A stretch of 64,000 bases of DNA from Escherichia coli 042 (GTDB lineage: Bacteria > Pseudomonadota > Gammaproteobacteria > Enterobacterales > Enterobacteriaceae), in assembly GCF_000027125.1 (NCBI RefSeq), contig NC_017626.1; one strand, given 5' to 3'. Made by a program: the position numbers and the translations under genes. How positions within the stretch are numbered: position 1 is the first letter of the stretch; every line of letters starts with the position of its first letter. Positions 61,345-62,535 of the stretch are shown in pieces. A model generated the notes under the pieces. The model worked only from the letters and a program-made list of their open reading frames with translations, searched no databases and was not told where the DNA came from.

Positions 61345-62535
61345 TTAATGAATTTCTTTTGCCACTACTAGCGCGACACCGCTTTTACCCTTCATTTGCA
61401 GCGCATAGACTCCACCAGCCACTACCACTAATAGTGCACCCAGCAGATAAATCATTCGGTAGCCAGTATGTGCAACCATCATCCCCATCACACAGGCTCC
61501 CAGCGCCAGGCCTGCATCCATCGCATTGAAGAATAGGGAGTTTGCGACACCGATTTTATGCGGTTCCACTGAACTGATAATCTGCGTCTGAAAAACTGGC
61601 GTCACGGAACCATACCCGATACCAATCAACGCGCCAGAAACAACCATCATTATGCTTCCCTAGGTGTAGCCGAGAACCACCAGTCCAACCGTAAAGAACA
61701 CAAGGCAAGGGTAAACCACATATTTCGGTCCTTTTTTGTCGCAGACATTGCCGGTAAAGGTACGGCAGATCATCAGGAAGATAGCGTAGCAAAGCAGGAA
61801 ATTACTGGCTGCCGACATCAGGTTAAGTTCGCGTGCATAAAGCGCCAGAAAAGCAGAAACCCCGGCATACGAAAAGGTCATAAAAAAGGTGACCATCGCA
61901 AATGGCAACGCCGCGCGATCGAACATGGCGGCGAAGCCCATTTTCGGCTTTGAACCATCAGCATGGCTGATAACCGGCGGCACTGTCATAATCAGCGACA
62001 GAATAATCCCCACCGCTGCCACGCCGGTGCATAACCAGAAAGCCATATTAAAGGCCTCCCAGCGCGCCATATTCAGGCCAATCCACGGCCCGACCACCAT
62101 TGCCAGCCCCATTGCCAGAGAGAAAAAACTGATGCCCTCCCCACGTCGGGAGGCCGGGATCAGCCGCGCGGAAATCGTTCCTTTTACCGTAGTAATAACC
62201 CCGAAGGTAATACCATGAAGCACCCGAATAAAAAGCAGTGATTCAATTGAGTGGCAAAAAGGATACAACGCAGTGACCAACAAAAAGGCCAGAGAAGAGA
62301 GCACCAGAATAGTTTTATTCGAATATTTACCCACCCATTGCCCGGCAAAGGGGCGAATAACAATGGCGGCAATTAAAAATAAAGTCACCAATAAACCGGC
62401 TTTATCAGGAGAGGCATGCAAGCGGTCAGAGATATAAATTGGCAACAATGTTAGTAAAACATAAAAGACGAAGAAAATAATAAAGCTGATGATGGTTATT
62501 GCCCAAAAATCCTTCGTCCATAACTTCTCTTTCAT
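61345..62535 (-). pseudogene. MFS-family transporter interrupted by one in-frame TAG (amber) codon
   Basis: ORFs 61660..62535 (291 aa) and 61345..61650 (101 aa) are in the same frame, separated only by TAG at 61660..61662 plus three sense codons; combined about 396 aa with about 12 hydrophobic segments. Confidence 0.7.

Follow-up and report, generated by a model that had tools for sequence, protein, structure and literature searches.

An amber codon at a former Dcm site in an MFS transporter gene of Escherichia coli 042, and the decay of the accessory gene cluster between inaA and glpQ

Introduction

Two adjacent open reading frames that lie on one strand, in a common frame, and are parted by little more than a stop codon may be two genes, one gene that has recently been broken, or one gene that is still expressed in spite of its stop. 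This question is raised by a pair of minus-strand frames next to inaA in the genome of Escherichia coli 042 (assembly GCF_000027125.1, contig NC_017626.1), in a stretch of 64,000 nucleotides which was analysed as a whole and is called the window below. The paper that describes the E. coli 042 genome, together with its supplements (PMC2808357), does not discuss this MFS gene.

According to our analysis, the two frames are a recent and quite ordinary nonsense pseudogene in a small accessory cluster. We propose, with a probability of roughly 0.85, that the gene of a 12-helix MFS transporter has been inactivated recently by a C-to-T change at a Dcm site, and that this amber codon is a part of the decay of a cluster of three genes.

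Results

The two frames form one gene

Translation of the minus strand through both frames gives a sole internal stop, then Gly-Ser-Ile, and then the ATG of the shorter frame, which lies 9 nt past the TAG (Table 1). It is exactly what a first, sequence-only reading of this DNA had described as two frames in common register split by TAG and three codons, and the open reading frame list and the translation agree on it. The same reading expected from the joined frame a transporter of about 396 aa; this was borne out by an end-to-end match to MFS transporters of 396 aa annotated in other E. coli. Genomes that have the gene are annotated with a single 396-aa "MFS transporter" (WP_000660225.1 in strain 118UI). 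The possibility that two separate genes are ancestral was rejected, since every orthologue read is a single gene of 396 aa.

Table 1. Features of the locus with their positions in the window
Feature	Position	Strand	Description or basis
inaA, conserved flank of the cluster	60614..61264	-	open reading frame list, orthologous loci
MFS transporter pseudogene	61345..62535	-	one frame, 397 codons long, broken by an amber at codon 292
C-terminal fragment, 101 aa, hydrophobic segments 10-12	61345..61650	-	open reading frame list and hydropathy
Former Dcm site, CCAGG to CTAGG, changed base the inner methylated C	61659..61663	-	CCWGG scan
Amber TAG, ancestral CAG (Gln292)	61660..61662	-	orthologue comparison
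N-terminal fragment, 291 aa, hydrophobic segments 1-9	61663..62535	-	open reading frame list (61660..62535 with the stop TAG included) and hydropathy
Divergent MFS-LysR intergenic region, 151 bp	62536..62686		sequence
Truncated LysR-family regulator, 245 aa (intact 292)	62687..63424	+	open reading frame list, comparison with the intact gene
Junction of the 484-bp deletion relative to strain 118UI	63421..63422		BLAST
Third cluster gene, 5' part, cut by the window end	63547..64000	+	356-aa hypothetical protein when intact

Compared with the allele of strain 118UI, the window has one different nucleotide in 1,191 (gene nt 874, window position 61662), with A in place of the ancestral G on the plus strand, hence C874T on the coding strand; the other 395 codons of the frame agree with the 118UI protein, and the stop replaces codon 292 of 396. 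An examination of orthologues for the sense codon at this place had been proposed in the sequence-only reading, and its answer is CAG (Gln), without exception in the seven intact alleles that were read (118UI, DETEC-P666, O157:H7, KE55, FDAARGOS_1285, 7/2 and the locus L009). One nonsense change in a gene that is intact otherwise, which had been suspected to mean recent pseudogenisation, is thus what the locus contains: it is one nucleotide away from the 118UI allele, and CAG is the ancestral codon. As no second change has accumulated with respect to this allele, the inactivation is recent.

By hydropathy, residue 292 falls into the short turn that joins hydrophobic segments 9 and 10 (...LVVLGYT-Q-GS-IMMVVSG...). 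A stop after helix 9 would leave a product without helices 10-12, and owing to this truncation the MFS product is predicted to be non-functional.

Family and probable role of the transporter

The intact protein matches Pfam MFS_1 (PF07690) over residues 14-342 with an E-value of 1.3e-45 and has 12 hydrophobic segments by hydropathy, so it belongs to the MFS. It reaches none of the curated NCBIfam cut-offs: PRK05122 scores best, with 111.7 bits where 374 are required, followed by PRK12382 (arabinose exporter; 86.2 against 364) and CntE (74.4 against 235). Among proteins of solved structure the closest relatives found with phmmer are NorA, for the N-terminal half only (E 4e-13), and the sugar efflux transporter 6kki, at full length (E 2.5e-5). 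We consider that the protein is probably a DHA1-like exporter working under the divergent LysR-type regulator.

Distribution and constraint

Where the locus is intact, its order is inaA, the MFS gene, the divergent LysR-family regulator, a gene for a hypothetical protein of 356 aa, and glpQ. A query of 1,501 bp over the locus matches 5,425 of the 5,426 complete RefSeq E. coli genomes by way of its inaA flank, and coverage reaches 80% or more in 1,226 genomes only; 1,231 of the 5,426 contain a 201-bp piece from inside the gene. About 23% of the complete E. coli genomes thus have the cluster, in agreement with the earlier opinion that this is strain-variable accessory content. The intact alleles of 118UI and O157:H7 differ by 45 synonymous and 3 non-synonymous changes, and the resulting dN/dS of 0.019 points to purifying selection on the MFS gene where it is kept. 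From these data, together with the lesions in other lineages and the remnant in K-12 described below, we conclude that the cluster of the MFS, LysR and hypothetical genes is ancestral, variably kept and repeatedly lost.

Two observations on related proteins may be added here. The 90%-identity cluster of a 359-aa near-full-length form contains 396-aa proteins of Salmonella enterica and of Citrobacter (C. werkmanii and C. portucalensis), which makes the gene common to several enterobacterial genera at high identity. E. coli CDC#03-98 (locus L004) carries a 6-nt tandem duplication TACACC, adding Tyr-Thr, at codons 290-293, which abuts the Dcm site and codon 292 on their 5' side; its protein has 398 aa and is annotated as intact.

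Neighbouring genes

The regulator in the window is identical to the intact gene through nt 735 and diverges thereafter. Its product has been deposited as CBG35312.1, 'LysR-family transcriptional regulator (partial) [E. coli 042]'. A clean deletion of 484 bp takes LysR codons 246-292 (47 codons) and about 340 bp downstream, as follows from two BLAST matches, both of 100%, of window 62600-63421 to positions 4401-5222 of the orthologous locus L001 and of window 63421-64000 to its positions 5706-6285; a microhomology of 1 nt made the halves of a 55-mer over the junction seed as two pieces. The HTH_1 and LysR substrate-binding domains are still recognised in the fragment, yet the fragment ends 47 residues short of the full 292 and its substrate-binding domain is not complete.

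Over the part seen here, the third gene has 98.9% identity with the O157:H7 gene that encodes WP_001301786.1 (its first 454 nt). It has 32% GC against 51.6% for the window and gives no match in Pfam or NCBIfam. In another assembly, GCA_036599305.1 (L005), which is identical to the window across the overlap, this gene has an A6-to-A5 frameshift at about nt 627, past the window end and outside the overlap. The MFS amber codon, the LysR deletion and the frameshift in this identical relative together point to a cluster that is dead as a whole, and all three genes appear to be inactivated in the lineage of the window. Lesions of the regulator are seen elsewhere too, an IS1 insertion in the locus L011 and an internal stop in DETEC-P666.

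The divergent intergenic region contains a palindrome ATTAA-N5-TTAAT (62641-62666), a candidate T-N11-A LysR box. A promoter scan of the locus gave matches no more numerous than in shuffled sequence, and no terminator-like site was found between the MFS stop and inaA. Elsewhere in the window, between nrdA and nrdB (about 58945-59180), a long TTG-started reading frame that overlaps nrdB opens with repeated peptide motifs, a signature of REP/BIME-type repeats; the counterpart of this intergenic region in L001 (752-951) has internal direct repeats of about 89% identity.

The amber allele is real

It could be argued that the stop codon is an error of sequencing or assembly, as a 55-mer centred on the T matches none of the 5,426 complete RefSeq E. 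coli genomes, a query that would overlook O157-type alleles, which differ from it 5 and 9 nt past the T. Exactly the 291-aa product is, though, carried by 52 public contigs that come from NCBI, Logan and ENA, three sources independent of one another, and the independent assembly GCA_036599305.1 is 100% identical to the window across 5,341 bp of overlap, the TAG included, which refutes an error and leaves it a negligible probability. The missing 55-mer rather means that the lineage of this amber allele is unrepresented among the complete genomes, none of which matches the locus exactly; the best of them reaches 98.6% over 12 kb and 99.9% over the gene.

The amber codon lies on a former Dcm site

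The ancestral ACCCAGGGA has become ACCTAGGGA in the window, the mutated base being the second C of CCWGG and the change being from C to T. In the codon context ACC-CAG-GGA of the ancestor, CCAGG is contained. The gene carries two CCWGG sites, and only the one at codon 292 gives a stop upon deamination of 5-methylcytosine: of the 118 single-nucleotide changes that would put a nonsense codon into the gene, C874T alone falls on a Dcm 5-methylcytosine; it is one of 19 transition nonsense paths and one of seven nonsense paths by coding-strand C-to-T changes. Dcm methylates the second C of CCWGG, and the C-to-T rate is elevated there (PMC8565308).

Since the mutation hit the inner C of a Dcm site, we regard deamination of 5-methylcytosine as its most likely origin, with a preference that is real though far from overwhelming. 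In a host with active dcm, a gene that lies outside the window, CAG of Gln292 would have been converted to TAG through a deamination event that evaded very-short-patch repair, as at the classical amber hot spots of lacI.

Recurrence of Q292* and of other nonsense alleles

The recurrence of the mutation was assessed by predicting the 291-aa truncations for five other allele backgrounds and looking them up by exact sequence. Three of the five proved to be on record, and a fourth variant had already been seen. Q292* is found in four of six allele backgrounds, with C874T verified in DNA: the 118UI type (the window), the O157:H7 type (L018-L020 and L008; 200 contigs, E. coli DEC5A among them), the DETEC-P666 type (L024) and the 7/2 type (L021 and L022). 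These four backgrounds differ from one another by 14-58 nt, and each is 0-1 nt from an intact allele. At 5 and 9 nt past the T, the O157-type allele keeps the bases specific to its background, for which reason a recombination tract would have to be implausibly short and independent mutation is simpler. On this simpler reading, Q292* would have arisen independently in several E. coli lineages.

As a control, look-ups were made at coding-strand C-to-T nonsense sites outside Dcm context and checked in DNA. R130* (CGA to TGA) was present in four or more allele backgrounds (L026-L029, Logan assemblies), R360* (L031) and Q318* (L033) in one case each, and exact-sequence look-ups gave neither Q316* nor Q380*; three further positives (L030, L032 and L034) were contig-end artefacts. 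Non-Dcm nonsense changes recur too, with very deep sampling, so recurrence alone fails to single out the Dcm site, and we dropped it as a proof of a Dcm hot spot, as R130*, R360* and Q318* are real in DNA. In lineage size, the Q292* alleles are represented by 52 and 200 contigs, the other nonsense alleles by 1-14. Besides the identity of the mutated base, this difference in lineage size is what still speaks for a deamination origin. The lineage of W159* (TGG to TGA) is listed in 89 blocks of the collection. A 47-aa fragment (P0019) was rejected as a further lesion; the loci concerned, L012 and L014, are rich in broken neighbours and look like error-rich assemblies.

Discussion

Three other readings of function and loss deserve to be weighed against a simple, tolerated inactivation. 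Selection may have favoured the loss of the transporter beyond merely tolerating it: besides the four backgrounds of Q292* and at least four of R130*, there are W159*, R360* and Q318* and an IS1 in the regulator, and about 77% of the complete genomes have large deletions here. Sampling was so extremely deep, however, that rare nonsense alleles at the tips of the tree are expected under neutrality or weak purifying selection, and the dN/dS of the intact alleles speaks of long-term purifying selection, by which we hold a selected loss to be unlikely. A second reading keeps the transporter in work as two pieces, with termination at the TAG, a restart 9 nt further on, and assembly of helices 1-9 with 10-12. 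The stop is well placed for it, in a short turn (YT-Q-GS) outside the helices and at a cost of four residues; an SD-like AGGGAAG (61655-61661) lies 5-11 nt before the ATG with an anti-SD duplex of -5.7 kcal/mol, a context from which the 101-aa fragment may be supposed to be expressed; and the Q292* lineages exceed those of other nonsense alleles in contigs. If true, it would explain why these lineages are sizeable in at least two backgrounds. Lineage size is perhaps a matter of clonal success alone, though, the ancestor had the SD-like sequence too (-5.1 kcal/mol), which is hence no new adaptation, and the broken regulator and third gene fit a relaxed selection on the cluster, so we find a working split transporter very improbable.

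Expression of the full protein would also be kept by an amber suppressor (glnV/supE, inserting Gln at UAG), which the sequence-only reading had named as an alternative, or by natural read-through of UAG-G. The ancestral residue is Gln, and a supE-type suppressor would give back the wild-type protein unchanged; Marshall and Levy reportedly described amber suppressors in natural coliforms in 1980. Suppressors are nevertheless uncommon in wild isolates and costly, each of four unrelated backgrounds of the amber allele would need one, and with the adjacent genes of the cluster dead, maintained expression is unlikely; we give this reading hardly any credit. The 64-kb window itself contains no tRNA genes. 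We consequently hold to a recent inactivation of the MFS gene as a part of the decay of its cluster.

For annotation, it would be logical to treat the two frames as one pseudogene and the adjacent LysR gene as truncated, and to regard the inaA-glpQ cluster as non-functional in this lineage. An amber pseudogene is an already known kind of event and has little weight beyond annotation. What is new here is the location on a Dcm site, the recurrence in four backgrounds and the decay of the LysR and third genes; the truncated LysR, the Dcm context and the recurrence of the mutation elsewhere had not been remarked upon in the earlier reading. The MFS amber mutation may possibly serve as a small test case for the share of Dcm methylation in gene loss in the wild.

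Comparison with known systems

With DHA1-type exporters, such as NorA of S. aureus and the sugar efflux transporter SotB, the MFS protein has in common the MFS_1 fold and 12 hydrophobic segments, and a GP-x-x-G in its segment 5 (V148-G-P-W-I-G153) resembles the antiporter motif of these exporters. It resembles them only distantly, and its scores stay below the equivalog cut-offs of NCBIfam.

The amber mutation may be seen as a natural counterpart of the textbook amber hot spots of lacI, which Coulondre, Miller, Farabaugh and Gilbert are said to have located at Dcm sites in 1978. In both genes a CAG within CCAGG turns into TAG by a C-to-T change of the inner C, and in both it occurs repeatedly; the MFS mutation comes from natural populations, whereas the lacI hot spots come from a selected laboratory collection, and, unlike them, the MFS site did not prove in our control to recur more than non-Dcm C-to-T nonsense sites. 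A split MFS gene also recalls LacY, for which functional complementation of fragments was reportedly obtained by Bibi and Kaback in 1990 and by Zen et al. in 1994. Both are cut in a loop between helices, and in the MFS gene a restart codon follows soon after the cut; split LacY, however, is a set of engineered constructs, while the assembly of the MFS protein from two pieces is hypothetical.

A further parallel lies in the same place of another E. coli genome. The first reading named a short LysR remnant in K-12, and MG1655 indeed holds only the pseudogene yfaH (b2238) between inaA and glpQ. Residues 226-292 of the intact LysR protein match the 68-aa YfaH model NF007272 (E 4e-43), and what MG1655 has left is ~107 nt from the end of the MFS gene, plus yfaH, the C-terminal part of LysR. 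The locus and the decaying cluster are thus common to K-12 and the window, yfaH being the C-terminal remnant of the LysR regulator. In K-12 two deletions took most of the MFS gene, most of the LysR gene and the third gene, while the window keeps nearly all of this DNA and has instead a point nonsense mutation and the 484-bp deletion.
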